A DNA stretch of 64,000 bases from Pristiophorus japonicus. Lineage: Eukaryota. The notes under the pieces were generated by a model that was given only the letters and a program-made list of their open reading frames with translations, had not been told where the DNA came from and searched no databases. Below are positions 4,005 to 62,702 of the stretch, in pieces. The stretch is taken from the NCBI RefSeq assembly GCF_044704955.1, contig NW_027252668.1, positions 5,890,001 to 5,954,000 on the forward strand, written 5' to 3'. Numbering within the stretch: the first letter of the stretch is position 1; each line of letters starts with the position of its first letter. A program made the position numbers and the translations under genes.

Positions 4005-4623
4005 AGCGGACAGGATTTAATCTAATAACCCAAAGGCTCTTTTCAGAGCCACCCACACTATCTGTGAAAGGTCTGCTTTCTGTTCTGTGGATCACAATTG
4101 TTCCTGATCTAATTTAATACAAAACATGTTGGGACAGCCGAATATGAAACGGATCATAAGAGCCGAGTATAAAGGAATGAGCGATTGATGGGCAATTATT
4201 CCACAGGGAGAAATATATACATTTGAACACATTGATCCATGCGGACTTTTACCCTTTTTTTAATTTGCGTAAAGGTCAGATACAGATTACAGGCAGTTCG
4301 TCCCCTCTCTGGAATCTGTCCCGGTATGTGCAGTGGGATCAATACACTATCAGCTCTCCCACTTGATAGTTCGCGACCCACATTGGGCGGGTGCAGTGGG
4401 CATCTGACTCAGATTAAAACCTGGAGCAACGCCGCACCGTCAGATATTCACCGCCTACACTACATAAAGCTCCAGTTATAGTAACACTACAAGACGTGCA
4501 CGGTGTGTACACAGGACAGTTTGCCTGGAGCCGGTCGCAACTCTTTCCTTTGCTGATTTGGTGGCTCTGAAAAGAGCCGTTGTTGCACTTGATGCGAAAG
4601 CTTGGAACCCGGGCAGGAGGAGT

Positions 4624-6174: not shown

Positions 6175-6815
6175 TCACTCAAACTGTCGCTGAATGACGA
6201 ACCAACTGCTCCTCGCTCCTTTTTTATAGAGCCGGCCCCGACCTGACTGAGAAAGCGCATAGTGAGAGGCGGGAAGGGGAGGAGACAGAGTGAGAGGTTA
6301 AACAGATAGCGCGGCAGGGGAGGAGAAAGAGTCAAGATTGAGAGACAGAGCAGAGCCCGCCTCTGATCTTCCAGCTCCACCTCCGGCTTTCTGCAACCGC
6401 CAATTTCAAATTGTTTTCTCCACAATACAACCGATACACAGCGCTCCGCACAAGCCCTTACAGACTCGGAATTCATATTCAAGGCTTCCAGGGACCAGAA
6501 GCTTTTAAATAAGGTCCCGGTACAATTCACAATCAGGAATATTCCCGCCTATATAGTCCGTTCGCTATCAATCTCAGACTATTCCATCTCCTCTCACAGA
6601 CCGGTTCAGCACTTTACAAACACCTTATTCCAGCTGATTTGGAGAATTTGGGGTTTGAGTTGTGAGGCGGGGTATCGCCGCCAGTCCCACCGTCTCACAG
6701 AGACTCTTCCCCCTGAATCTGTGAAATGACAATGACCAGGAACTGAGACTGGAGCCGGACTCAAACCCTAGTTACAGTGAGGCCCGGGCCGGACATCCCA
6801 TTCTCTGTGTTTTAT

Positions 6816-10752: not shown

Positions 10753-10928
10753 ACTAAACTAATCTCGAACATTTTCTGTCAGATATTAACTCCTGCGCGG
10801 TCCGAGCAACAATTCCCACTCCCTCGTCCCTCCGATGTTTTTGCAGGATTGCTTTGTGAAGACGGCTGAATGGGGAGAAATTACAACATGCTGTGGTGCA
10901 GAGGGACCTGGGGGTCCTTGTGCATGAA

Positions 10929-13876
10929 ACTCTTTTGGAGTTTACCTGTTAAACATAAACATTAATCGGTGCCACCCGACCTGGATGACACACCAGATAT
11001 TTACAAGGACCATTTTTTTCTTTTTTGTGTTTTTTTTTCTGTTTTTTTTTGGGCACTAAAATCCAATTTTTTTTTTCCACCAGTGCCCCCTATAAAAGGG
11101 GAGGGGGACACTAAAAGCACCGGCAATTAAAACAAATTAAACTTTAAAACGTAAAATCAAATTAAAATTTGGTTGCCGGGCGTGATGATGCACTCCAGTC
11201 CCTCCGGTGCCTACCTCTCGCGGAAGGCCGCGAGCATACTGGTGGACACCGCGTGCTCCATCTCCAAGGACACCCTGGACCGGATGTAAGAGCGGAAGAG
11301 TGGCAGGCAGTCAGGTTGAACGACCCCCTCGACCGCCCGCTGCCTGGACCGGCTGATGGCACCCATGGCCGTGCCCAGGAGCAGTCCTACGAGGAGGCCC
11401 TCGGACCTACCCGCTCCCCTCCGCACAGGGTGTCCAAAGATCAGGAGAGTGGGACTGAAGTGCAGCCAGAATTTCAGGAGCAGCCCCTTCAAATAATGGA
11501 ACAGGGGCTGCAACCTCGTGCACTCAATAAAAACATGGAACACGGACTCCTCCAGACCGCAGAAATTGCAGGCGGCCTGGGAGTCCGTGAACCGGCTTAA
11601 AAATTTGTTGCACGGCACTGCTCCGTGCACCACCCTCCAGGCCAAGTCCCCGATGAATAGTGGGAGGACCACTGCGTAGAGTGCCCTCCATTGGGGACCC
11701 CCGCCTCCTCCGGATGGCAAGATGGTACGCCATGGCGTGTCCGGACGGCCGGCGAGGATGGCAAAGTTGAGGGTGTGCAGGAGCAGCCCGTACAGGAAAC
11801 CCCTCCGCGCGGAACTGAAAGGCACGGAGGGGATTTCCCCGAGGCGGCTCAAGTTGTGAGGCGCCGGCCCCCGAGGGAGGTTCCGGGGTTTGGCGCCGAT
11901 GAGGAATTCCGTCCGGACGGGGGTCAGTTCGGACGGGATCTCCCCACGTGCTTGAGCCTCCTCGATGCACCTAACGGAGTCAGGGCCCAGAGCTGTTTTT
12001 AGCGACTCGATGGCATCGGCCGCGTGGCGGACGTTGGCAGAGTTTAGGCGCCGCGCCAGCGTGTCTGGCGCCATCCAGCCCGCTCCTCCGCCATCGAGCA
12101 GGTCCCTGACCCTGGTCACCTCACCAGCCACAGCCCTCTCTTCCGACCGCCACATGAAACCTCGGCCGTGGAGGTACGGATTCCCGAGCAGCGGCTCCTG
12201 CAGGACGGCCGCCACTCCAGCCGGCGGAGAGCTGCGCTTAGTGGAGACTTTGTTCCAGACCCTGATGAGTTCCCTGTAAAAGACAGGCAGCTCCTGGAGG
12301 GCGGTCCTGGCACCCCCCAAGTTCACAAACAGGAGCTGCGTGTCATAATTGAGGTCGCGCTGCTGGCGGAAGAAATACCTCGCCAGAGCACACCACCTAG
12401 GAGGGGGCTCGACGTAAAGGTATCTCTGCAGGGTCTGAAGACGGAATGTCGCGAGCTGGGCGCTGACGCACACCAACGACTGACCGCCCTCCTCAAGCTG
12501 GAGACTCAGGACCGCGGCAGAGACCCAGTGCTTCCTGTTGTTCCAGAAGAAGTCCACCAGCTTCTTCTGTATCTTGGCGACAAACGCAGGGGGAGGGGTC
12601 AAAGTGACCAGCTGGTACCACAACATTGCGGCCACCAGCTGGTTTATGACTAGCGCTCGACCCCTGTAGGACAGTACTCGGAGCAGTCCTGTCCAGCGCC
12701 CTAGGCGAGCGGCGACCTTGGCCTCCAGCTCCTGCCAGTTCGCCGGCCAGGCTCCCTCGTCGGGGCTAAGGTAGACTCCCAGATAGAGGAGATGGGTCGT
12801 GCTCCAGGCAAAAGGCCTGAGCTCCTCCGGCAGGGAGTCCACCTGCCACTGACCCACCAGGAGTCCGGAACATTTCTCCCAGTTGATCCTGGCGGAGGAC
12901 GCGGCCGAGTAAATCTCCAGGCACTCACGCAGCCTCCGCAGGTCAGCGGGATCCTCTACCGCGAGGAGCACATCATCGGCATAAGCCGACAGGACGACCT
13001 CCACGCCCGGCCCTTGCAGAGCCAGTCCCGTCAACCTCGTCCGCAAGAGGCGCAGGAAAGGCTCCACGCAAACGGCGTATAACTGGCCGGACATGGGGCA
13101 TCCCTGGCGCACCCCTCTCCCAAAGCCAAGGGGCGCCGTCAAGGACCCGTTAACCTTAATCAGACACTCCGCGGTGGTGTACAAAAGTCAGATCCGGGTG
13201 ACGAAATGCGTCCCGAACCCGAAAGCGCGCAGAGTTCCAAGCAGATAGTCGTGATCCACCCTGTCGAACGCCTTCTCTTGGTCGAGAGATAGGAAGGCGA
13301 CCGACAGACCAGCCTCCTGGGAATGATGGATGAGGTCCCGGACCAGATGGATGTTGTCGTGGATTGTCCGGCCCGGGACCGTGTAGGACTGGTCGGGTGG
13401 ATCATGTGGTCCAGCACGGCACCAAGGCGAGCAGACATCGCCCTGGCGAAGATTTTGTAGTCCGTGCTGAGGAGGGAGACCGGGCGCCAGTTCTTAAGGA
13501 GGCGGAGATCACCCTTCTTAGGCAGCAGGACAATGACTGTCCTGCGCCAAGAGAGGGGCATCTCCCCGGTCGCCAGACTTTCCCCCAGGACCCGCGCGTA
13601 GTCGCTCCCCAGGATGTCCCAGAACGCCCTGTGGAACTCCACGGTCAGCCCGTCCAGCCCCGGGGTTTTTCCCCTCGAGAGCCGGTCGAGGGCACCGGTC
13701 AGCTCCGCCAGGCTTAGCGGAGCTTCCAAATTTTCACCGCCCTCCGGGCTGACTTTCGGCAGGTCCTCCCACAAAACTCTACACGCTTCCTCGCTGGACG
13801 GATCCGGAGAGAACAGAGCCCCGTAATATTCACGGGCCCTGTTGTTGACGCCCTCCGGATCTGAAACGAGAGAGCC
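10929..13876 (-). mobile_element. Tx1-clade LINE copy A, 5'-truncated (RT plus C-terminal CCHC)
   Basis: QGCPMSG, YADD, CNFCGLEESVFHVFIEC; flanked by GTCCTTGTGCATGAA at 10914-10928 and 13877-13891; frameshift near 13395; late stop at 11211. Confidence 0.93.
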
Positions 13877-13891
13877 GTCCTTGTGCATGAA

Positions 13892-16855
13892 ACTCTTTTG
13901 AGTTTACCTGCAAAACATAAAAACATTAAACGGTGCCACCCGACCTGGGTGACACTCCAGACATTTACAAGGCCCTTTTTTTTCCCCCCCTTTTTTTGTT
14001 TTTTTTTTGTGTTTTTCTTTTTTGGTTTTTTTTTTTGGGCACTAAATTCACAATTTTCCCCAGTGCCCCCTATAAAAGGGAAGGGGGACACTAAAAGCAC
14101 CGGCAATTAAAACAAATTAACTTTAAAACGTAAAATCAAATTAAAATTTGGTTGCCGGGCGTGATGATGCACTCCAGTCCCTCCGGTGCCCACCTCTCGT
14201 GGAAGGCCGCGAGCGTACCGGTGGACACCGCGTGCTCCATCTCCAAGGACACCCTGGACCGGATGTAAGAGCGGAAGAGAGGCAGGCAGTCAGGTTGAAC
14301 GACCCCCTCGACCGCCCGCTGCCTGGACCGGCTGATGGCACCCTTGGCCGTGCCCAGGAGCAGTCCTACGAGGAGGCCTTCGGACCTACCCGCTCCCCTC
14401 CGCACAGGGTGCCCAAAGATCAGGAGAGTGGGACTGAAGTGCAGCCAGAATTTCAGGAGCAGCCCCTTCAAATAATGGAACAGGGGCTGCAACCTTGTGC
14501 ACTCAATAAAAACATGGAACACGGACTCCTCCAGACCGCAGAAATTGCAGGCGGCCTGGGAGTCCGTGAACCGGCTTAAAAATTTGTTGCACGGCACTGC
14601 TCCGTGCACCACCCTCCAGGCCAAGTCCCCGATGAATAGTGGGAGGACCCCTGCGTAGAGTGCCCTCCATCGGGGACCCCCGCCTCCTCCGGACGGCAAG
14701 ATGGTACGCCATGGCGTGTCTGGACGGCCGGCGAGGATGGCAAAGTTGAGGGTGTGCAGGAGCAGCCCGTACAGGAAACCCCTCCGCGCGGAACTGAAAG
14801 GCACGGAGGGGATTTCACCGAGGCGGCTCAAGTTGTGAGGCGCCGGCCCCCGAGGGAGGTTCCGGGGTTTGGCGCCGATGAGGAATTCCGTCCGGACGGG
14901 GGTCAGTTCGGACGGGATCTCCCCACGTGCCTGAGCCTCCTCGATGCACCTAACGGATTCAGGGCCCAGAGCTGTTTTTAGCGACTCGATGGCATCGGCC
15001 GCGTGGCGGACGTTGGCAGAGTTTAGGCGCCGCGCCAGCGTGTCTGGCGCCATCCAGCCCGCTCCTCCGCCATCGAGCAGGTCCCTGACCCTGGTCACCT
15101 CACCAGCCACAGCCCTCTCTTCCGACCGCCACATGAAGCCTCGGCCGTGGAGGTACGGATTCCCGAGCAGCAGCTCCTGCAGGACGGCCGCCACTCCAGC
15201 CGGCGGAGAGCTGCGCTTGGTGGAGACTTTGTTCCAGACCCTGATGAGTTCCCTGTAAAAGACAGGCAGCTCCCGGAGGGCAGTCCTGGCACCCCCCAAG
15301 TTCACAAACAGGAGCTGCGTGTCATAATTGAGGTCGAGCTGCTGGCGGAAGAAATACCTCGCCAGAGCGCACCACCTAGGAGGGGGCTCGACGTAAAGGT
15401 ATCTCTGCAGGGTCTGAAGACGGAAAGTCGCGAGCTGGGCACTGACGCACACCAACGACTGACCGCCCTCCTCAAGCGGGAGACTCAAGACCGCGGCAGA
15501 GACCCAGTGCTTCCTGTTGTTCCAGAAGAAGTCCACCAGCTTCTTCTGTATCTTGGCGACAAACGCAGGGGGAGGGGTCAAAGTGACCAGCCGGTACCAC
15601 AGCATTGCGGCCACCAGCTGGTTTATGACTAGCGCTCGACCCCTGTAGGACAGCACTCGGAGCAGTCCTGTCCAGCGCCCTAGGCGAGCGGCGACCTTGG
15701 CCTCCAGCTCCTGCCAGTTCGCCGGCCAGGCTCCCTCGTCGGGGCTAAGGTAGACTCCCAGATAGAGGAGATGGGTCGTGCTCCAGGCAAAAGGCCTGAG
15801 CTCCTCCGGCAGGGAGTCCACCCGCCACTGACCCACCAGGAGTCCGGAACATTTCTCCCAGTTGATCCTGGCGGAGGACGCGGCCGAGTAAATCTCCTGG
15901 CACTCACGCATCCTCCGCAGGTCAGCGGGATCCTCTATCGCGAGGAGCACGTCATCGGCGTAAGCCGAGAGGACGACCTCCACGCCCGGCCCTTGCAGAG
16001 CCAGTCCCGTCAACCTCGTCCGCAAGAGGCGCAGGAAAGACTCCACGCAAACGGCGTATAACTGGCCGGACATGGGGCATCCCTGGCGCACCCCTCTCCT
16101 AAAGCGAAGGGGCGCCGTCAAGGACCCGTTAACCTTAATCAGACACTCCGCGGTGGTGTACAAAAGTCAGATCCGGGTGACGAAATGCGTCCCGAACCCG
16201 AAAGCGCGCAGAGTTCCAAGCAGATAGTCGTGATCCACCCTGTCGAACGCCTTCTCTTGGTCGAGGGATAGGAAGGCGACCGACAGACCAGCCTCCTGGG
16301 AATGATGGATGAGGTCCCGGACCAGATGGATGTTGTCGTGGATTTTCCGGCCCGGGACCGTGTAGGACTGGTCGGGTGGATCATGTGGTCCAGCACGGCA
16401 CCAAGGCGAGCAGACATCGCCCTGGCGAAGATTTTGTAGTCCGTGCTGAGGAGGGAGACCGGGCGCCAGTTCTTAAGGAGGCGGAGATCACCCTTCTTAG
16501 GCAGCAGGACAATGACTGCCCTGCGCCAAGAGAGGGGCATCTCCCCGGTCGCCAGACTTTCCCCCAGGACCCGCGCGTAGTCGCTCCCCAGGATGTCCGA
16601 GAACGCCCTGTGGAACTCCACGGTCAGCCCGTCCAGCCCCGGGGTTTTTCCCCTCGAGAGCCGGTCGAGGGCACCGGTCAGCTCCGCCAGGCTTAGCGGA
16701 GCTTCCAAATTTTCACCGCCCTCCGGGCTGACTTTCGGCAGGTCCTCCCACAAAACTCTACACGCTTCCTCGCTGGACGGATCCGGAGAGAACAGAGCCC
16801 CGTAATATTCACGGGCCCTGTTGTTGACGCCCTCCGGATCTGAAACGAGAGAGCC
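13892..16855 (-). mobile_element. Tx1-clade LINE copy B, 5'-truncated
   Basis: Same truncation point and frameshift as copy A; flanked by GTCCTTGTGCATGAA at 13877-13891 and 16856-16870. Confidence 0.93.
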
Positions 16856-17739
16856 GTCCTTGTGCATGAATCCCAAAAAGTTAGTTTGCAGGTGCAGCAG
16901 GTAATAAGGAAGGCGAATGGAATGTTGGCCTTCATTGCAGGAAGGATGGAATACAAAAGCAGGGAGGTCCTGCTGCAACTGTATAGGGTATTGGTGAGGC
17001 CGCACCTGGAGTACTGCATGCAGTTTTGGTCACCTGACTAAAGGAAGGATATACTAGCCTTGGAGAGGGTACAGAGACGATTCACTAGGCTGATTCTGGA
17101 GATGAGGGGGTTACCTTATGATGATAGATTGAGTAGACTGGGTCTTTACTCATTGGAGTTCAGAAGGATGAGGGGTGATCTTATAGAAACATTTAAAATA
17201 ATGAAAGGGATAGACAAGATAGAGGCAGAGGGGTTGTTTCCACTGGTCGGGGAGACGAGAACTAGGGGGCACAGCCTCAAAATACGGGGGAGCCAATTTC
17301 AAGCCGAGTTGAGAAGGAATTTCTTCTCCCAGAGGGTTGTGAATCTGTGGCATTTTCTGCCCAAGGAAGCAGTTGAGACTAGCTCATTGAATGTATTCAA
17401 ATCACAGATAGATAGATTTTTAACCAATAAGGGAATTAAGGGTTACGGGGAGCGGGCGGGTAAGTGGAGCTGAGTCCACGGCCAGATCAGCCATGATCTT
17501 TTTGAATGGCGGAGCAGGCTCGAGGGGCGAGATGGCCCACTCATGTTCCTAATTCTTATGTTCTTATATTATGTAAACACCCTGCACAGAATTATCCCAA
17601 ATTGAGCATTTCCAAGGGACAAGGCTCCCAGCTTTAATCATTCTGTGTCCTTTCCCCCCAGGCCCAGTTCCTTTGTTCAGATTCTGATAAAAGTAAATTG
17701 GGAAAGGTGCACTTTGATTTTTACAGGCTGAATTATTGC

Positions 17740-22350: not shown

Positions 22351-23700
22351 ATGGAAGCAGAAGGCACCGTTCACAGTGGGGAGAAACGGTACACGTGCTC
22401 TTTGTGTGGACAAGGCTTCAGCCAATCATCCAACCTGGAGAGACACAAGTGCAGTCACATTGGGGAGAAACCATGTAAATGTGAGGACCGTGGGAAACGA
22501 TTCAACTACCCGTCCCAGCTGAAAATGCACCAGCCGTTTACCTGCTCCGACTGTGGGAAGGGATTCACTGCATCATCCAGCCTGCTGACACACCAAGTTC
22601 CCACTGGGGAGAGGCTGTTCATCTGCGCGGAGTGTGGGAAGGGATTCACTGTATCATCCAGCCTGCTGACACACCAGCGAGTTAACACTCGGGAGAGTCC
22701 GTTCACCTGCTCCGACTGTGGGAAGGGATTCACTGCATCATCCCACCTGCTGACACACCAGCAAGTTCCCACTGGGGAGAGGCCGTTCATCTGCACGGAG
22801 TGTGGGAAGGGATTCACTGTATCATCCAGACTGCTGACACACCAGCGAGTTCACACTGGGGAGAGGCCGTTCACCTGCTCCAACTGTGGGAAGGGATTCA
22901 CTCAGTTATCCGCCCTACTGAGACACCAGCGAGTTCACACTGGGGAGAGACCTTTTAAATGTTCTGACTGTGAGAAGAGTTTTAAAAGCAAACAGCAACT
23001 CCTGACACACCAGCGAGTTCACACTGGGGAGAGGCCGTTCACCTGCTCCGAGTGTGGGAAAAGATTCACTCAGTCATCCAGCCTGCTGACACACCAGCAA
23101 GTTCACACCGGGGAGAGGCCGTTCACCTGCGTGGAGTGTGGGAAGGGTTTCACTGTATCATCCAGCCTGCTGATACACCAGCAAGTTCACACTGGGGAAA
23201 GACCGTTCTCCTGCTCCGACTGTGGGAAGGGATTCATTCAGTTATTCGCCCTGCTGAGACACCAGCGAGTTCACACTGAGGAGAGACCTTTTAAATGTTC
23301 TAACTGTGAGAAGAGTTTTAAAAGCAAACAGCAACTCCTGACACACCAGCGAGTTCACACTGGGGAGAGGCCTTTTAAATGTTCTGACTGTGAGAAGAGT
23401 TTTAAAAGCAAACAGCACCTGCTGATACACCAGCGACTTCACACTGGGGAGAGGCCGTTCACCTGCTCCGAGTGTGGGAAGGGATTCACTCTGTCATACC
23501 ACCTGCTGAGACACCAGCGAATTCACACAGGGGAGAGGCCGTTCAGCTGCTCTGAATGTGGGATGGGATTCACTCGGTCAGCCCACCTGCTGAGACACCA
23601 GCGAATTCACACTGGGGAGAGGCCGTTCACCTGCTCAGAGTGTGGGAAGGGATTCATTCGATCATCCAACCTGCTGAGCCACCAGCGAGTTCACAAGTGA
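22351..23700 (+). CDS. C2H2 zinc-finger protein (16 finger units, 12 with full C2H2 ligands, no KRAB/SCAN)
   Basis: Open ORF from ATG 22351 with TGERPF linkers; polypyrimidine tract and AG acceptor at 22242-22243 upstream. Confidence 0.9.
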
Positions 23701-38157: not shown

Positions 38158-39061
38158 ACCAATGACTGACAGGGACAGAGATAGATATATACTTCCAGAC
38201 CAGACACTGACGAGCACAGAGATAGATACATACTTCTATACCGGTCACTGACAGGCACACAGATAGATACATACTCCCAGACCAGAAAGTGACAGCACAG
38301 ATAGATGCAAACTCCCGTACCAGGGACTGACAGGCACACAGATAGATGCATACTTCCAGACCAATACATAAGAATTAGGAACAGGAGTAGGCCATCTAGC
38401 CCCTTGAGCATGCTCCGCCAATCAATAAGATCATGGCTGATCTGGCCGTGGACTCAGCTCCACTTACACGCCCGCTCCCTGTAACCCTTAATTCCCTTAT
38501 CGGTTAAAAATCTATCTATCTGTGACTTGAATACATTCAATGAGCTAGCCTCAACTGCTTCCTTGGGCAGAGAATTCCACAGATTCACAACCCTCTGGGA
38601 GAAGAAATTCCTTCTCAACTCGGTTTTAAATTGGATCCCCCGTATTTTGAGGCTGTGCCCCCAAGTTCTAGTCTCCCCGACCAGTGGAAACAACCTCTCC
38701 GCCTCTATCTTGTCTATCCCTTTCATTATTTTAAATGTTTCTATAAGATCACCCCTCATCCTTCTGAACTCCAACGAGTAAAGACCCAGTCTACTCAACC
38801 CATCATCATAAAGTAACCCCCTCATCTCCGGAATCAGCCTAGTGAATCGTCTCTGTACCCGCTCCAAAGCCAGTATATCCTTCCTTAAGTAAGGGGACCA
38901 AAACAGCACGCAGTACTCCAGGTGCGGCCTTACCAATACCTTATACAGTTGCAGCAGGACCTCCCTGCTTTTGTACTCCATCCCTCTTGCAATGAAGGCC
39001 AGCATTCCATTCGCCTTCCTGATTACCTGCAAACTAACTTTTTGGGATTCATGCACAAGGA

Positions 39062-39393
39062 TCCGCGCGTACATCCGCGCCAGGGTATCCTTGGAGATGG
39101 AGCACGCGGTGTCCACCGGTACGCTCGCGGCCTTCCGCGAGAGGTGGGCACCGGAGGGACTGGAGTGCATCGTCACGCCCGGCAACCAAATTTTAATTTG
39201 ATTTTATGTTTTTTAAGTTAATTTGTTTTAATTGCCGGTGCTTTTAGTGTCCCCCTCCCCTTTTATAGGGGGCACTTGGAAAAAAAAAAAAATTTGATTC
39301 TGTGCCCAAAAAAAAAATGGCATTGTAAATGTTGGTGTTTCCCCCAGATTGGGGGGCACGGTTTAATGTTTTCCTGTTAACTCCTAAAAGAGT
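39062..39393 (+). mobile_element. Tx1-clade LINE copy C, short 3' fragment
   Basis: RAYIRARVSLEMEH...GNQILI* plus 3' UTR; flanked by TTCATGCACAAGGA at 39048-39061 and 39394-39407. Confidence 0.93.
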
Positions 39394-39407
39394 TTCATGC
39401 ACAAGGA

Positions 39408-39777
39408 TCCACGCATACATCCGTGCCAGGGTGTCCTTGGAGATGGGCACGCAGTGTCCACCGGTACGCTCGCGGCCTTCCGCGAGAGGTGGGTACCGGA
39501 GGGACTGGAGTGCATCATCACGCCCGGCAATCAAATTTTAATTTGATTTTATGTTTTAAAGTTTAATTTGTTTTTATTGCCGGTGTTTTTTAGTGTCACC
39601 CTCCCCTTTTATAGGGGGCACTTGGAGGAAAAATAAGATTTTAGTGCCCAAAAAAATAATTTAAAAAAAATACACACACACAAGAAAAGGGCCTTGGAAA
39701 TGTTTGGTGCGCCCCCCCAGATCGGGGGGGCACCATTTTATGATTTAATGTTTTTTTTGTTTGCTCCCAAAAAGAGT
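39408..39777 (+). mobile_element. Tx1-clade LINE copy D, short 3' fragment
   Basis: Same 5' junction as copy C with a different 3' UTR variant; followed by TTCATGCACAAGGACC at 39778-39793. Confidence 0.93.
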
Positions 39778-40712
39778 TTCATGCACAAGGACCAATGGTG
39801 GAGCTTTGGAGGCGTGGCCTAATCAGTTAGAGCTGTGAGCAGTGGGAGAAGGAGCTGCTGCTTTTGCTCCTGTCTGGGACGCCTGGAGTGAGCCCTGAGA
39901 ACAGCCCAGGAATAGGAGGGAAGGGCTGGCTTACTGCAGTTCAACATCCGGAGCGAGAGGAGAGCAGAAAAATTAACCAACTTTATTTACTTCTACAAAG
40001 AGTTGGAGAGAGTGGGAAAAGAGCAACAACCTGTGTGGAAGGAGGGAGATTCTACAACATTCTACAGGTGGGTGTTGGTGCATTCCCCGAAAGACATTGT
40101 TGTATCGGTGGGGGGAGGAAAGAAGACTTTTCGAGGGCCGGAACATCGCGGGAGGTGTGTGTGTGCGGAAGTGTGTGTGGGGGTCTTGCTTACAGCTAGG
40201 CCCCACACACCACTAAAGCACCCCTCCCCCATTGCCTAGCCTGGGATAGCTGGAGCTACCTGGCTGAAAACTATTAATTACCCTATTAAACATCATTGGG
40301 AGTGTGTGCCTGGGTGGCTCCAGCTACCCCAGGTGAAGACATCTTCTCCCCCCACCCGAAGACCTTTCTTAAAAGAATGTGTTTTTTTTTTGGATCTGGG
40401 GAGTGCACCCCAAGAAACACCCACCCATTGCTGTGAGGGGAGACCTGCCCTCGCAGCCTCCCTCTTTCCCACACCCCCTCACTCGATCTCTCTCTGTCTC
40501 TCCCCTCTCTCTCTGAGAGCCCTTTCCTCCTAATTTAAAAAAAAAACAATTAAGACAACTGAGCAGAGGGAGCAAGGCCCCTCCCCATTCGTTCACCAGG
40601 GGAGAGGTGTGCCCCATTAAGAGCTCCCTCTGCTCAAAAAACCAACGAGGCCAATAAAGACCATTAAGGCCTGTGACTTTGGGGTGGGTGTAGCCCTTAA
40701 AGGGACCCCGTG

Positions 40713-42813
40713 ATGGCGACCCCATCCACGCCGGTGGCAGGGCCAGCAAGGACATATGCGCAGGCGGCATCCACATCCATGGCGCCTCCTGCGCCACCTG
40801 CTGCCCTGCCACCATTCAGACTGATGACAAAGAAACACGGGGTCAAGAGCTACACTCAACCCACAATGAGCATTGAGGTGTGCATGCGGGCGATGGCCGG
40901 GGTAGTCGGCCCCTCGGCCATTGTTGCAGCCTCCAAGATGTCAGGGAAGGCTGTGTTCTTCCTGGGGTCGGAGCGGGCGGTGTCCCTGGCCCTTGAAAAG
41001 GGGCTCATGGTGGGCGGGACGTTCCTGCCGGTGGACCCTGTCGAGGCCACCGCGCAGAGGGTCATCATTTCAAACGTCCCGCCCTTTGTTCCCGCTGAGC
41101 TCCTTCTCCCTCACCTACACCAACTGGGGGAGGTAAGGTCGGGGATCTACCCCATACCGCTCGGCCTCAGGGAGAGCAGCCTGCGCCATGTGTTCTCCTT
41201 CCGCCGCCAGCTCTTTGTCCGGCTGGCACGGGAGGAGACGACGGAGGGCAATTTCAATGTGGTGCACGAGGGGACTGCCTACCGCGACTTCTGGACGTCG
41301 GAAGGCGTGCGGTGCCATGCCTGTAGGGAGGTGGGGCACGTTTGCAAGAACTGACCCGCCTCCAAGGCCGCCAAACCACCGAAGGCGGCTAAGGCTGGCG
41401 CCGCCGCCACCCCTCCCCCTAGTAGCGTCCGCGTGCCGCGTGCCGTGAGCCGTAGGTGCGCGGGCATCGTCGGGGGCCTTTGTTTTCACGGCCTCTGGCG
41501 GGGGGGAGGGTGAGCGTCCGATCGGAAAGAAGGTGCGGAGGAATGCGAAACATCTCGAGGCGGGTCCCCTCAGTGCGCCAGAAAGTTTGACCACCGCGCT
41601 CAGCCCAACCCAGTCATCGGCGAGCGCGGGGTGCCCTGAGCCCGTGCCCGAGCCCTTGACCAATACCGCAGAGGGGCTCGGGCGCGGGCAAGATAAGAAA
41701 AAGGGGGGGGCGGAGCGGGAGGCCTCGGCAGACACGGGGGTCTCCCTGCCTCCGCGCACCCCCAGGAACAAAAGGAGGCGCCACTCCAATGAGGCGGAGG
41801 GGGAACAACATCCTTCCGCGGAGGAGTCGGTGCCTGCCGCTTGTCCCGTGTCCCCCACCGGCGCCCCCAAACCACGCCGTAGGCGCGAGGAATCTGTCCC
41901 CGGGGAGGGTGAGGCAGTCGAGGCTGCCCAGCCGCTGCCTCCCGGGGATGGCATGAAAGATCTGCCTGGCGTGGGGGGCGTGGGGCCAGCGGAGGAATGC
42001 GTTGCTGCCGGGTCGAGCATCCCGGGGACTGAGGCGGACGGAGCCGAAAAGGTCGTACCTGAGACCGTCCGGCTATTATCCAACTTCCCCCGGGTGTCGT
42101 TGGGCCCAGAAGAAACGGCAATGAATGATTTTAACGAGTCTGTACACGCTGGGCCGGGGGGTGGCGGCGGGGTGGGGGAAGAACAACAACCCTCGCCCCC
42201 TACTTTGGAGCTGCGGTACTTGGTGGACCTGGAACATTACTTTGACTAGGTCTCTCCGTGTTCCCCGGTTACTGGGGCGGAGGAGGAACACCTTCCGCTG
42301 TCGCTTCCCGATCCAGCACCAAATTTAAAAGAGCCCAGTGGGGACTCCTCTGCCGATGATCCTGGGGGTGCGATCGGGGCGGAGCCAGGGCCAGATGGAG
42401 CGGCCGGGCCGTTTGCCGTACCTCATGCGGTCGACGGGCCGGCTGCTAGCGGCGACCTCCCGGAGGAGGACGGGGACTCGGTGGAGGACGCGGGTGAAGA
42501 TCTCGAGTCCATCGCCAGTGAGGCGGTGGATCTCCTCGTGCCCGCCGCTGAGTCCCCCCTCATTCCCGTAGAGGAACTCCGGGACTTTTTGGTCCAGAGC
42601 CAGGGTCGCCGCAACCGAACCCATCTGGCCCGGGAAAGATGGTCCTAGCCGGGGCTGCTCATCGCTTCCGTCCGCGTCACCGCTAAAACCATGGCCGCGG
42701 GCGGGCCCTTATCAAAGGCGCAAGGCCTTGAGCTGCGCTGGCTCAAAAAGTTCCTCGCTGGGCTGCTGAAGGAGTGGAGGTCAACAAACGACTCCACTCC
42801 CCCCCCACAATAG
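40713..42813 (+). pseudogene. Tx1 ORF1 (Gag-like nucleic-acid-binding protein with CCHC knuckle), disrupted
   Basis: VIISNVPPFV motif; CHACREVGHVCKN with the last Cys changed to TGA at 41352; further stops in the low-complexity C-half; end coordinate approximate. Confidence 0.75.
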
Positions 42814-42843
42814 GTTAGGTAGAGGTTGCACTATGCTCTTGTC

Positions 42844-45800
42844 ATGAAGATAACCATAGCCAGCCTCAACATCAACGGCGGCAGAGAGGCACGCCGTAGA
42901 TTTAACAATTTTTCGCTCCTGTGGGAGGGGAAATATGCGGTATGCTTCCTGCAAGAAACCCACACCGTTCCGGGAGACGAAGCCACGTGGCTCCTGGAAT
43001 GGCAAGTAGAGGTCCGCATGAGCCACCTCACCGCCACTTCTAGTGGGGTGGCCATCTTGCTGGCCTCGCATTTTCAGCCGGAGATCTTGGGGGTCGAGGA
43101 GCCCGTGCCAGGCCGCTTTCTGCACGTAACGGTTCACCTGGGGGACATGCCGCTCCATCTCGTGAACGTATACGCCCCTCAGCCCGGCCCGCAGCAAATG
43201 CGCTTCTTCGAAGAGGTGTCCGCTCTTCTTGGCTCCGTCGACGTCGGCCTCGGGGGGGATTTTAACTGCACCCTCGAGGCGAGGGACCGCTCCGGTTCCC
43301 CGCAGAGCATGACGGCGATGGGGAAGTTGAGAGACCTGGTCGGGTCCTTCGAGTTGGTGGACGTCTGGCGAAATCTCCATCCCGACTCCAGCGCCTTTAC
43401 TTGGGTGAGGCCTGGAGTAGGATGGTCCAGAGTCGACCGCCTTTACGTGTCTCGGGCGTACGTTTCCTGCGTCCCGACGGCCTCCTTGCGGCCGATGCCG
43501 TGTTCGGACCACCACCTGGTGTGGGCGGAACTCGCTTCGCTCCGCGGGAGGACGGGGTCCGCGTACTGGCATTTTAACAACCGGCTGCTGGAGGACGTGC
43601 GGTTCCAGGATTCGTTCCGTCGATTCTGGGCCGACTGGAGAAGGAAGCAGGGGGGCTTCCCCTCCTTGAGGCTATGGTGGGACGTGGGGAAGGCTCACGT
43701 CCGCGTCTTCTGTCAAGAGTACGCGAGGGGGTCAACCAAGAGGCGGGCGGCCAGGGTCGGGCGCCTAGAAAAAGAGGTGCTCGACCTGGAGTCCCGTCTC
43801 GGTCAAGTCGTCGGGGACCCGGCCCTGCGGATGGTGTACGAAGTGAAGAAGGCCGCGCTGAAGGACCTGCAGCTCGTCGGGTCCCGAGGCGCGTTCGTGA
43901 GGTCGCGGATCCGGTTCCTGCGGGATCTGGACCGCGGCTCCCCCTTCTTCTACTCGCTGGAAATAAAACAGAGTGTCCGTAAGCAGCTCTTGACGCTGCT
44001 GGCCGACGACGGCTCTCTCGTCTCGGATCCGGAGGGCGTCAACAAAAGGGCCCGTGAATATTACGGGGCCCTGTTCTCTCCGGAGCTGTCCAGCGAGGAA
44101 GCGCGTAGAGTTTTGTGGGAGGACTTGCCGAAGGTCAGCCCGGAGGGCACCGAAAATCTGGAAGCTCCGCTAAGCCTGGCGGAGCTGACCGGCGACCTCG
44201 ACCGGCTCTCGAGGGGAAAAGCCCCGGGGCTGGACGGGCTGACCGTGGAGATCCACAGGGCGTTCTGGGACATCCTGGGGGGCGACTACGCGCGAATCCT
44301 GGGGGAAAGTCTGGCGACCGGGCAGATGCCCCTCTCTTGGCGCAGGGCAGTCATCGTCCTGCTGCCTAAGAAGGGCGATCTCCGCCTCCTTAAGAACTGG
44401 CACCCGGGCTCACTCCTCAGCATGGACTACAAAATCTTCGCCAGGGCGATGTCTGCTCGCCTTGGTGCCGTGCTGGACCACATGATCCACCCCGACCAGT
44501 CCTACACGGTCCCGGGCCGGACAATCCACGATAACATCCATCTGGTCCGGGACCTCATCCATTATTCCCAGGAGGCTGGTCTGTCGGTCGCCTTCCTATC
44601 CCTCGACCAAGCGAAGGCGTTCGACAGGGTGGATCACGACTATCTGCTCTGAACTCTGCGCGCTTTCGGGTTCGGGACGCATTTCGTCGCCCGGATCCGA
44701 CTATTGTACGCCGCCGCGGAGTGTCTGATTAAGGTTAACGGGTCCTTGACGGCGCCCCTTCGCTTTGGGAGAGGGATGCGCCAGGGATGCCCCATGTCCA
44801 GCCAGTTATATGCCGTCTGCGTGGAGCCTTTCCTGCGCCTCCTGCGGACGAGGTTGACGGGACTGGCTCTGCAAGGGCCGGGCGTGGAGGTCGTCCTCTC
44901 GGCTTACGCCGATGACGTGCTCCTCGCGGTAGAGAATCCCGCTGACCTGCGGAGGATGCGTGAGTGCCAGGAGGTTTACTCGGCCGCATCCTCCGCCAGA
45001 ATCAACTGGGAAAAATGTTCCGGACTCCTGATGGGTTGGTGGCGGGTGGACTCCCTGCCGGAGGAGCTCAGGCCTTTTGCTTGCAGCACGACCCATCTCC
45101 TCTATCTGGGAGTCGACCTTAGCCCCGACGAGGAAGTCTGGCCGGCGAACTGGCAGGAGCTGGAGGCCAAGGTCACCGCTCGCCTAGGGCGCTGGACAGG
45201 ACTGCTCCGAGTGCTGTCCTACAGGGGTCGAGCGCTAGTCATAAACCAGCTGGTGGTCCCCATGTTGTGGTACCGGCTGGTCACTTTGACCCCTCCCCCT
45301 GCGTTTGTCGCCAAGATACAGAAGAAGCTGGTGGACTTCTTCTGGAACAACAGGAAGCACTGGGTCTCTGGGGCGGTGTTGAAGCTCCCGCTTGGGGAGG
45401 GCGGTCAATCGTTGGTGTGCGTCAGCGCCCAACTCGCGACTTTCCATCTTCAGACCCTGCAGAGATACCTTTACATCGAGCCCCCTCCTAGGTGGCGTGC
45501 TCTGGCGACGTATTTCTTCCGCCAGCAGCACGGCCTCAACTACGACACGCAGCTCCTGTTTGTGAGTGTGGGGGGCGTCAGGACCGCCCTCCGGGAGCTG
45601 CCTGTCTTTTACAAGGAACTCATCAGGGTCTGGAACAAAGTCTCCACCAAGCGCAGCTCTCCACCGGCTGGAGTGGCGGCCGTCTTGCAGGAGCCGCTGC
45701 TCGGGAATCCGTACCTCCACGACCAAGGTTTTAGGTGGCGGTTGGACGAGAGGGCTGTGGCTGGTGAGGTGACCAGGGTCACGGACCTGCTCGATGGTGG

Positions 45801-46731
45801 AGGAGCGGGCTGGATGGCGCCAGACACGCTGGCGCGGTGCCTAAATTCTGCCAACGTCCGTCACGCGGCCGATGCCATCGAGTCGCTAAAAAGAGCTCTG
45901 GGCCCCGACTCCATTAGGTGCATCGAGGAGGCTCAAGCACGTGGGGAGATCCCATCCGAACTGACCCACGTCCGGACGGAATTCCTCATCGGCGCCAAAC
46001 CCCGGAACCTCCCTCTGGGGCCAGCGCCTCACAACTTGAGCCGCCTCGGGGAAATCCCCTCCGTGCCTTTCATTTCCGCGCGGAGGGGTTTCCTGTACGG
46101 GCTGCTCCTGCACACTCTGAAATTTGCCATCCTTGCCTGCCGTCCGGACACGCCATGGCGTACCATCTTGCCGTCCGGAGGAGGCGGGGGTCCCCGATGG
46201 AGGGCACTCTACACGGGAGTCCTCCCAGTATTTATCAGGGACTTGGCCTGGAGGGTGGTGCACGGAGCAGTCCCGTGCAATAAATTTTTAAGCCGGTTCA
46301 CGGGCTCCCAGGCCGCCTGCAATTTCTGCGGTCTGGAAGAGTCCATGTTCCATGTTTTTATGGAATGCACGAGGTTGCAGCCCCTGTTTGATTATTTAAA
46401 GGGGCTGCTCCTGAAATTCTGGCTGCACTTCAGTCCCACACTCCTGATCTTTGGACACCCTGTGCAGAGGGGAGCGGGTAGGTCCGAGGGCCTCCTTGTA
46501 GGACTGCTCCTGCGCACGGCCAAGGGTGCCATCAGCCGGTCCAGGCAGCGGGCGGTCGAGGGGGTCGTTCTACCTGACTGCCTGCCTCCCTTCCGCGCGT
46601 ACATCCACGCCAGGGTGTCCTTGGAGATGGAGCACGCGGTGTCCACCGGTACGCTCGCGGCCTTCCGCGAGAGGTGGGCACCGGAGGGACTGGAGTGCAT
46701 CGTCATGCCCGGCAACCAAATTTTAAATTGA
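42844..46731 (+). pseudogene. Tx1 ORF2 (APE endonuclease, RT, CCHC) with a single in-frame stop
   Basis: SLNING, LQETH, GGDFN, SDH (APE); QGCP, YADD (RT); ORFs 42826 and 44704 share a frame and are separated only by TGA at 44650-44652 (GGA in copies A/B). Confidence 0.93.
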
Positions 46732-47509
46732 TTTTATGTTTTAAAGTTTAATTTGTTTTAATTGCTGGTGTTTTTTAGTGTCCCCCTCCCCTTTTATAGG
46801 GGGCACTTAGGAAAAATATTATTTAAGTGCCAAAAAAAAAAAAAAAATGGGCGTTGTAAATGTTTGGTGCATCCCCCAGATCGGGGGGCCACGGTTTAAT
46901 GTTTTTGTTTGCTCCAAAAGAGTTTCATGCACATGGAACCCCAGGTCCCTCTGCATCTCAGCATGTTGTAATTTCTCCCCATTCGAATAATATTCCCTTT
47001 TACTGTTTTTTTCCCCAAGGTGGATGACCTCACACTTTCCGACATTGTATTTCATCTGCCAAACCTTAGCCCATTCGCTTAACCTATCTAAATCTCTTTA
47101 CAGCCAATCTGTGTCCTCTCCACAACCCGCTTTCCCACTAATCTTTGTGTCATCTGCAAATTTTGTTGCACAACACTCTGTCCCCTCTTCCAGGTCATCT
47201 ATGTATATTGTAAACAGTTGTGGTCCCAGCACCGATGCCTGTGGCACACCATTAACCACCGATTTCCAACCCGAAAAGGACCCATTTATCCCGACTCTCT
47301 GCTTTCTGTTCGCCAGACAATTCTCTATCCATGCTAATACATTTCCTCTGACTCCGCGTACCTCTATCTTCTGCAGTAACCTTTTGTGTGGCACCTTATC
47401 AAATGCCTTTTGGAAATCTAAATACACCACATCCATCGGTACACCTCTATCCACCATGCTCGTTATTTCCTCAAAGAATTCCAGTAAATTAGAAAATTCC
47501 AGAAAAAAC

Positions 47510-60621: not shown

Positions 60622-61129
60622 TCACTCAAACTGTCGCTGAATGACGAATCAACTGCTCCTGGCTCCTTTTTTATAGAGCCGGCCCCGACCTGACTGAGAA
60701 AGCGCAGAGTGAGAGAGGCGGGAACGGGAGGAGACAGAGTGAGAGATTAAACAGAGAGCGCGGCAGGGAAGGAGACAGAATCAAGAGTGAGAGACAGAGC
60801 AGAGCGCCGCCTCTGATCTTCCAGCTCCACCTCCAGCTTTCTAAAACCGCCAATTTCAAATTGTTTTCTCCACAATACAACCGATACACAGCGCTCCGCA
60901 CAAACCCTTACAGACTCGGAATTCATATTCAAGGCTTCCAGGGACCAGAAGCTGTTAAATAAGGTCCCGGTACAATTCACAATCAGGAATATTCCCGCCT
61001 ATATAGTCCGTTCCCTGTCAATCTCGGACCTTATTCCATCTCCTCTCACAGACAGGTTCAGCACTTTACAAACACCTTATTCCAGCTGATTTGGAGAATC
61101 TGGTGTTTGGGGTTTGAGTTGTGAGGCGG

Positions 61130-62298
61130 TGTACCTGCTCGATGGCGGAGGAGCGGGCTGGATGGCGCCAGACACGCTGGAGCGGCGCCTAAATTCGGCC
61201 GACGTCCGCCGCGCCGCCGATGCCATCAAGTCGCTAACAATAGCACTGGGCCCTGACTCCGTTAGGTGTGTCGAGGAGGCTCAAGCACGTGGGGAGATCC
61301 CGTCCGAACTGATCCCTGTCCGGACGGAATTCCTCATCGGCGCCAAACATCGGAACCTCCCTCGGGAGCCGGCGCCTCACAACTTGAGCCGCCTCAGGGA
61401 AATCCCCTCCGTGCCTTTCAGTTTTGCACGGAGGGCTTTCCTGTACAGTCTGCTCCTGCACACTCTCAACTTTGCCATCCTCGTCTGCCGTCCGGACACG
61501 CCATGGCATACCATCTTGCCGTCCGGAGGAGGCGGGGGTCCCCGATGGAGTGCACTCTACGCAGGAGTCCTCCCATTATTTATCGGGAACTTGGCCTGGA
61601 GGGTGGTGCACGGAGCAGTCCTGTGCAATAAATGTTTAATTCGGTTCACGGGCTCCCAGGCCGCCTACAATTTCTGCGGTCTGGAAGAGTCCGTGTTCCA
61701 TGTTTTTATTGAATACACGAGGTTGCAGCCCCTGTTCCAATATTTAAAGGGGCTGCTCCTGAAATTCTGGCTGCACTTCAATCCCACACTCCTGATCTTT
61801 GGGCACCCTGTGCGGAGGGGAGTGGGTAGGTCCGAGGGCCTCCTTGTAGGACTGCTCCTGGGCACGGCCAAGGGGGCCATCAGCCGGTCCAGGCAGCGGG
61901 CGGTCGAGGGGTTCGTTCAGCCTGACTGCCTGCCTCTCTTCCGCTCTTACATCTGCGCCAGGGTGTCCCTGGAGATGGAGCACGCGGTATCCACCGGTAC
62001 GCTCGCAGCCTTCCGTGAGAGTTGGGCGCCGGAGGGACTGGAGTGCATCATCACCGCCGGCAACCAAATTTTAAATTGATTTTACGTTTTAAAGTTTAAT
62101 TTGTTTTAATTGCCGGTGTTTTTAGTGTCCCCCTCCCCTTTTATAGGGGGCACTTGGATAAAAACATTTGATTTTAGTGCCCAAAAAAAAATACAAAATA
62201 AACAAAAAAAAACACCAAGAAAAGGGCCTTGAAAATGTTTGCTGTGTCCCCCAGATCGGGGGGCACGATTTAATGTTTAGTTTTTCTCCCAAAAGAGT
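61130..62298 (+). mobile_element. Tx1-clade LINE copy F, 5'-truncated, in the H4-H1 spacer
   Basis: ORF2 C-terminus plus 3' UTR; GAGTTGTGAGGCGG duplicated at 61116-61129 and 62295-62308; empty site at 6657-6670. Confidence 0.94.
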
Positions 62299-62702
62299 TG
62301 TGAGGCGGGGTCTCGCTGCCAGTCCCACTGTCTCAGAGACTCTTCCCCCTGAATCTGAAATGACAATGACCTGGAACTGAGACTGGAGCCGGACTCAAAC
62401 CCCAGTTACAGTGAGGCCCGAGCCGGACATCCCATTCTCAGTGTTTTATTGTAGGCACTGGGGCGGCGGGTGCAGACACTGAGGGGAGGGGGGGTGGGTG
62501 CAGACACTGGGGGCGGGACAGGGTGGGGTACAGCCAATGCCAACGAGTCACCAGGGATCCCGGGGTCATTTTCAATGAATTCTATCTGGAATCTGAGCCC
62601 GGGACAGGGATTATTTGATTTCGGGATCAGCTCTTTTCTGAGAGGCGTGGGTGGCTCTGAAAAGAGCCTTTGGGTTTAAATGTTTAGAAGCTGCCTTTTT
62701 AT

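Follow-up and report, generated by a model that had tools for sequence, protein, structure and literature searches.

The question raised by this locus is how neighbouring copies of a retrotransposon can share one 5' truncation point and still carry unlike 3' UTRs. In the window, that is, the whole stretch of 64,000 nucleotides of Pristiophorus japonicus DNA that was analysed, an antisense LINE fragment is split at TTCATGCACAAGGA by three head-to-tail insertions, C, D and the full-length E, with the 14-mer between each of them. The host LINE forms the left flank (38366..39047, minus strand, the C-terminal part of its reverse transcriptase (RT) and its 3' end; ORF at 38454-39203), and it is followed on the plus strand by target copy T1 (39048..39061, TTCATGCACAAGGA, alongside the native left flank), copy C (39062..39393), T2 (39394..39407), copy D (39408..39777), T3 (39778..39791), copy E (39792..46923, a decayed full-length Tx1-type LINE) and the last target copy, T4, with one substitution (46924..46937, TTCATGCACATGGA). 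The host LINE then resumes as the right flank, on the minus strand, with an approximate end (46938..47490). ORF1 of E, on the plus strand, runs from about 40713 and is interrupted by stops, and its ORF2 (42844-46731, plus strand) has one in-frame stop at 44650-44652.

The left-flank host LINE is 94% identical to the flank of A/B, another pair in the window that shares its junction. Its protein homologues are RT/endonuclease LINE proteins, the best named ones from rays and sharks (64-67%), and LINE proteins without a name, from sharks, rays, turtles and birds, are among its matches; a search of a protein atlas yielded no name for it, and judging by its motifs it may be CR1-like. An inverted segmental duplicate of the C-D-E array and its flank (approximately 97-98% identical) lies on the same contig at 4.436-4.439 Mb, 1.5 Mb away. 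Short-read contigs cover the array in pieces of 58-79 nt only and are too fragmented to be of use, but because the paralogous array carries the same C/D differences, the array is probably no assembly artefact. Elsewhere in the window there are an array of approximately 14 units with a period of 84 nt, consistent with a C2H2 zinc-finger exon (22533-23695), scattered minisatellites of 41 nt and 33 nt, and a solo, truncated, off-target copy F (61116-62310), at whose flanks a short direct repeat overlaps the element's GAGTT end.

On sequence comparison the inserted element is a Tx1-type LINE, with an ORF2 closer to Tx1 than to mammalian L1. The ORF2 of E carries the Pfam domains Exo_endo_phos (PF03372) and RVT_1 (PF00078), with zf-RVT scoring just below the cut-off; it matches L1 ORF2 structures at 7e-20, and the Xenopus TX1 149 kDa protein (YTX2) with 50% identity in the N-terminal part and 45% over 99% of the C-terminal part. 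The family is target-specific and duplicates its target site: every insertion has a regenerated copy of the 14-nt target at either end, and exact junctions of element end and target number 14,790 in the 5.9 Gb assembly (control: 0), 7,008 of them followed by native flank, beside 27,004 empty targets with the same left-flank type. There are approximately 2.1 junctions per exact terminal junction, against the 1.3 or so that we estimate for equal use of every target copy; occupied sites may be re-used preferentially, but this ratio is biased by flank decay and DNA-level expansion. At three places (L073, L313 and C1:152931938) units between target copies start with tRNA-like non-element sequence, and these units may represent small RNAs or SINEs whose mobilisation used the same target.

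Copies C and D are both preceded by TTCATGCACAAGGA and both begin at position 6801 of E, the same base, as the preliminary description had claimed. Their tails are unlike, also as claimed there: D exceeds C by 38 nt, and between D and the paralogue of C (C') the 3' UTRs differ at 33/188 sites, the coding remnants at 8/136. Motifs specific to the C tail (33 nt) and the D tail (29 nt) occur genome-wide 117 and 179 times, respectively. Tails were compared at the first 25 loci per motif, of which 15 and 20 had an aligned coding anchor; the loci were chosen by the tail motifs, and diagnostic columns outside those motifs agree. From D the C tail differs at 33-36 of approximately 190 sites, from a copy elsewhere in the genome at 1/190, and in the 3' UTR comparison C and D rank only 30-35 of 40-41 as each other's relatives, among the matches listed; the outcome that would have refuted the preliminary description, C and D as mutual closest relatives over their full length, did not arise. 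A 42-row tree places C among c-type copies (100/98) and D among d-type copies (98/97), the grouping of tails with different subfamilies that chimeric re-insertion had been expected to show. Copies C and D thus go back to two insertion events, by different subfamilies of one target-specific Tx1-type LINE; the 5' junction of the later one was likely acquired from the resident during integration. Copy C is likely the newer of the two and D the older resident, and T1 would be the site of re-insertion.

How much of the resident was copied in this pair is harder to tell. The switch point cannot be placed, because the remnant of approximately 135 nt that represents the coding region contains zero c/d diagnostic columns, and no copied tract is visible in C/D. 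Since C lacks the CpG-type changes that D shares with its paralogue at +4, +17 and +47, a long copied tract is argued against; the copying was therefore very short, or has been repaired away, or is older than the changes in D. As for the targets of the older subfamily, among the matches listed d-type copies lie mostly in another, TTCTGTGGAC-like target (18/25 loci, L210-L234), and in the 14-nt target of the window at 2/25; this suggests that the endonuclease preference shifted between host sites, in which case D would be a transitional copy.

The second pair, longer than C/D and missed in the preliminary description, is more explicit. Copies A (13892..16856) and B (10929..13877), on the minus strand, both start at 4219 and are accompanied by target copies at 16857-16870, 13878-13891 and 10915-10928. 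Over the first 700 nt A and B show 4 differences, while the nearest outsiders show 17-19; over the next 1000 nt A differs from outsiders at 6 sites and from B at 23, which puts B at rank 97 of 107, the outsider closest to B shows 18 differences to it, and the last 95 nt of A are identical to a copy at another locus. Because the distances switch after approximately 700 nt, the upstream copy A is a clear chimera, with the head of the older resident B and the rest from a younger source like copies at other loci, and it is the new copy of the pair.

Shared truncation points are general and extend well beyond these two pairs. Junctions were sampled among the matches listed (the first 100 of 1,109 and the first 100 of 172, a few complex clusters being skipped), together with 11 full-length arrays picked by spacing; a junction was counted when its downstream unit was truncated and its first two bases were non-C, with three spacing-picked arrays and the paralogue excluded. 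Among these matches the start is shared with the upstream unit at 101/176 tandem junctions (pairs inside one array are not independent), the remaining upstream units being 39 longer, 18 shorter, 6 mini and 12 of unknown start; counted by locus, at the first junction only, it is shared in 52/112. When first units are paired across loci, their starts agree to within 1 nt in 34/6327 pairs, or 0.5%, among the matches listed, and the C/D junction pattern has 4 exact matches in 5.9 Gb, namely C, D and their paralogous array on the same contig (the search covered the exact pattern, with variants of it in younger subfamilies outside its scope), which bears out the earlier view that independent truncation at the same base is improbable. 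Among the matches listed, residents of at least 1.5 kb (n=49) have upstream neighbours with a shared start in 36 cases, shorter in 8, longer in 1 and unknown in 4, and 22/62 young pairs share the junction already. Residents below 300 nt depart from this pattern (27 longer upstream copies vs 16 shared starts, of 54, among the matches listed), perhaps because short copies also enter downstream targets. Full-length neighbours behave alike: their first 22 nt are shared in 24/31 pairs vs 4.9% between loci, and runs of neighbours also have an additional G or A ahead of the 5' end in common (27/31 neighbours, against 38% between loci). At C1:9.71-9.77, 112.94-112.98 and 150.15-150.22 Mb there are arrays with 5 to 10 copies of 7.2 kb, mostly full-length. 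The target duplication that marks double-insertion tandems is present between the units, and the independent 5' truncations that would also mark them are replaced by shared ones at 101 of the 176 junctions counted above.

The resemblance between neighbours fades with distance from the junction. In truncated pairs (n=108), discordance at polymorphic sites is 0/50 at 2-25 nt (19.6 expected), 6/114 at 25-100 nt (37.2 expected) and 0.5-0.7 of expectation at 200-3200 nt, and full-length pairs (n=25) show the same rise away from the junction. The last 95 nt of neighbours differ like those of unrelated copies (median 10 vs 11), near-identical tails (0-1 differences) occur in 13/133 pairs, and in 7/71 pairs the last 600 coding nt are closest to those of the partner. 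A switch point fitted to the 56 pairs of at least 1.5 kb with different tails has a median of 408 nt (quartiles 230-929), all of these being upper bounds, and falls in the first fifth of the unit in 30/56 (KS vs uniform p=1e-7); an exponential distribution with a mean of 800 nt fits the distances best, 33 log units above uniform. In full-length pairs the switch lies within 713 nt in 15/19, and multi-kilobase tracts are found in 4/19. Taken together, a chimera with the resident's 5' tract, as expected of homology-resolved target-primed reverse transcription, is found in A/B and in the pooled pairs and is not visible in C/D.

Composite junctions are inherited whole: a 140-nt mini-copy appears as seven near-unchanged repeats ahead of units with different tails, a 16-nt one is repeated four times with new tails, and C1:57.74 Mb holds a repeat of an entire 476-nt unit plus the head of the full-length copy behind it. 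A search for target plus native flank joined to an element tail gave 0 matches, so strand extension at empty sites was not seen, and microhomology at first-unit junctions was not above random (none in 88/103, in a sample biased against C starts). At one locus (L025, C1:9554460-9554577) a 117-nt duplication extends from the left flank through the target and 66 nt into the element, with 6-nt microhomology at its bounds.

Which copy is the new one has been approached in several ways. Private alleles are richer in the downstream unit in 60 vs 23 truncated pairs, and in 36 vs 10 first pairs, while in last pairs the upstream unit is nearer to outside copies in 20 vs 5. The remaining measures are not significant: a validation batch (22 vs 11, p=0.08), full-length pairs (10 vs 9), the nearest outsider over all pairs (37 vs 25, p=0.16) and target decay (3/93 vs 9/93, p=0.13); the nested sharing of rare alleles along arrays, followed in part of the arrays, gave a mixture of left and right. 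That the new copy is usually the upstream one is supported, if more weakly than the sharing itself.

Target-primed reverse transcription begins at a nick, made at the target's left edge, and the upstream DNA end has then to be joined to the cDNA. We consider it probable that, at an occupied site, re-insertion takes place at the upstream target and is completed through homology with the resident copy. After nicking and reverse transcription at that target, the broken upstream end would acquire the resident's first tens to hundreds of bases, whether by copying the resident in cis, by copying the sister chromatid or through a second cut inside the resident; the extended end would then anneal to the homologous place in the new cDNA, and surplus cDNA would be trimmed. 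The pairing of the resident's first bases with the cDNA would thereby fix the junction at the old truncation point. Capture would be expected wherever the cDNA reaches the resident's start, and the counts for residents of at least 1.5 kb are in line with this; a cDNA that ends short of that start would keep its own, shorter junction, longer copying would duplicate whole upstream units, and later unequal exchange would expand some arrays.

The preliminary description had proposed a second insertion primed at the regenerated target, and this part stands, since many arrays support chimeric re-insertion and A/B supports it directly. Its further proposal, that the new cDNA was completed by copying the resident, fares less well: C/D shows no tract, and shared tracts mostly end near the 5' junction, which extension of the cut strand followed by annealing explains at least as well as a switch of the cDNA. 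Such a switch may account for the minority of multi-kilobase tracts. Capture of the junction would occur during integration, as the young pairs and the lack of intermediates indirectly suggest. It is a more tentative proposal, with chances a little short of even, that such resident-templated 5' joining is the default mode of re-insertion, in which the broken target end copies downstream sequence and then captures the cDNA by homology.

The alternative that survives best, although we regard it as unlikely, is that the second copy inserts with a junction of its own and that gene conversion or unequal exchange, with a single-copy allele or within the array, later swaps in the resident's 5' part. 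The product would be identical, the tracts are of conversion size, the switch distances are broad, and equal truncations in MoTeR telomere arrays have been ascribed to conversion or exchange in the accessible text of that report (10.1101/845669). Exact higher-order blocks and mosaic units exist as well; the blocks show that unequal exchange, or duplication in the assembly, acts on some arrays too, and the near-identical tails in a minority of pairs indicate that DNA-level expansion contributes. At C4:247.06-247.09 Mb the junction spacing alternates between approximately 276 and 7481 nt, likely a higher-order array. However, conversion would be required at about half of all loci, and junctions are shared already in young pairs; beside long residents, longer upstream copies that escaped conversion hardly occur (the single case in 49, among the matches listed), two-unit arrays have no donor for the second tail, and a simple crossover predicts the uniform switch points that were rejected.

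It is far less probable that the RT leaves the incoming RNA for a local read-through transcript made at the occupied locus and copies the resident's 5' part and the target as RNA. Such switching between RNAs is reported for L1 in the available part of one study (PMC11702581), and it would explain both the chimeras and the copied composite junctions, but every occupied locus would have to be transcribed when the insertion happens, and the clustering of switches near the junction is not predicted. Hardly credible is the alternative named in the preliminary description, in which one copy was duplicated in tandem long ago and homopolymer slippage ensued: it explains a minority of arrays with near-identical units, but the tails of C and D belong to different genome-wide subfamilies and carry many linked substitutions common to other loci, a single clade for C and D is rejected (p-AU 0.000165), and in neither C/D nor A/B are the units nearest relatives over their whole length, so that it is refuted for both pairs. 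Equally hard to credit is independent truncation at a hotspot, since, even if a handful of start positions are used at more than one locus (6595 by five, and 6923, 6886 and 6879 by four each, of 113 first units among the matches listed), the between-locus match rate makes it improbable by about 100-fold and the exact C/D junction pattern is confined to the locus and its duplicate.

To our knowledge, the 5' end joining and second-strand priming of non-LTR retrotransposons are still open questions. The arrays offer hundreds to thousands of natural events with a built-in marker (resident vs incoming alleles) that gives tract length and polarity; they imply that identical truncation points are no longer proof of DNA duplication, and that the process yields equal-length units seeding satellite-like arrays and mosaic subfamilies. 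The process also matters where site-specific retrotransposon gene-insertion tools are given more than once, since the later insertion could form a chimera with the earlier one. If resident-templated joining were indeed the default, a locus would remember its first truncation point, occupied sites would integrate more efficiently than empty ones, the family would recombine with itself at each re-insertion, and thousands of arrays would map the second-strand step in the vertebrate germline.

As far as the accessible text of the sources goes, R1, SINEU-3 and the Drosophila dimers are already known to insert in tandem into a target that has been regenerated, and L1 and R2 to resolve their cDNA through homology. 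Chimeras of L1 with endogenous L1 have reportedly been found too, in work by Gilbert of 2002/2005 and by Symer of 2002. The systematic inheritance of a truncation point is a new variation on tandem LINE insertion, real and general; a search of the open-access literature (Repbase Reports, most subscription journals and supplements lying outside it) turned up neither tandem LINE arrays with inherited truncation points nor a shark Tx1 that has a LINE as its target.

The closest relatives are the Tx1 clade systems (Xenopus Tx1L, crocodilian Tx1-Mar and SINEU-3), which, as presented in the available part of the report, combine an APE endonuclease with an RT, use another mobile element as target and form tandem copies that sandwich the target duplication; unlike them, the target here lies inside a LINE coding region (PMC4494074). 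The Tx1-Mar and SINEU-3 tandems are ascribed there to sequential insertion, the portion available to us making no mention of inherited truncation points (PMC4494074). In Drosophila 28S rDNA, R1 likewise leaves a 14-bp target duplication between copies, and its new copies are inferred to enter the duplication at the resident's 5' end, which the growth at the upstream target proposed here matches; shared 5' truncations or chimeric copies, unlike here, are not described in the accessible text on R1 arrays (PMC2718515). Double-insertion TE dimers also carry the target site at the junction and can seed satellite-like arrays, and the available text takes distinct truncations as the sign of independent insertion, a criterion that would misclassify the present insertions, which are independent and carry identical truncations, as duplications (PMC5932611). 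For L1, the part of the study at hand reports that cDNA recombines through homology of at least 25 bp, so that, as proposed here, an insertion intermediate is resolved by homology with an existing copy; those events are rare and of rearrangement type, whereas here approximately half of the sampled tandem loci are involved and the target duplication is intact (PMC13526784). Finally, R2 cDNA anneals to the upstream target, and the 'anneal' 5' junctions of R2, in the accessible account, resemble ours in their precise 5' joining by pairing of the cDNA with the upstream target strand, with the difference that the homology is carried on the RNA in R2 and would here come from the resident downstream of the nick (PMC11331408).
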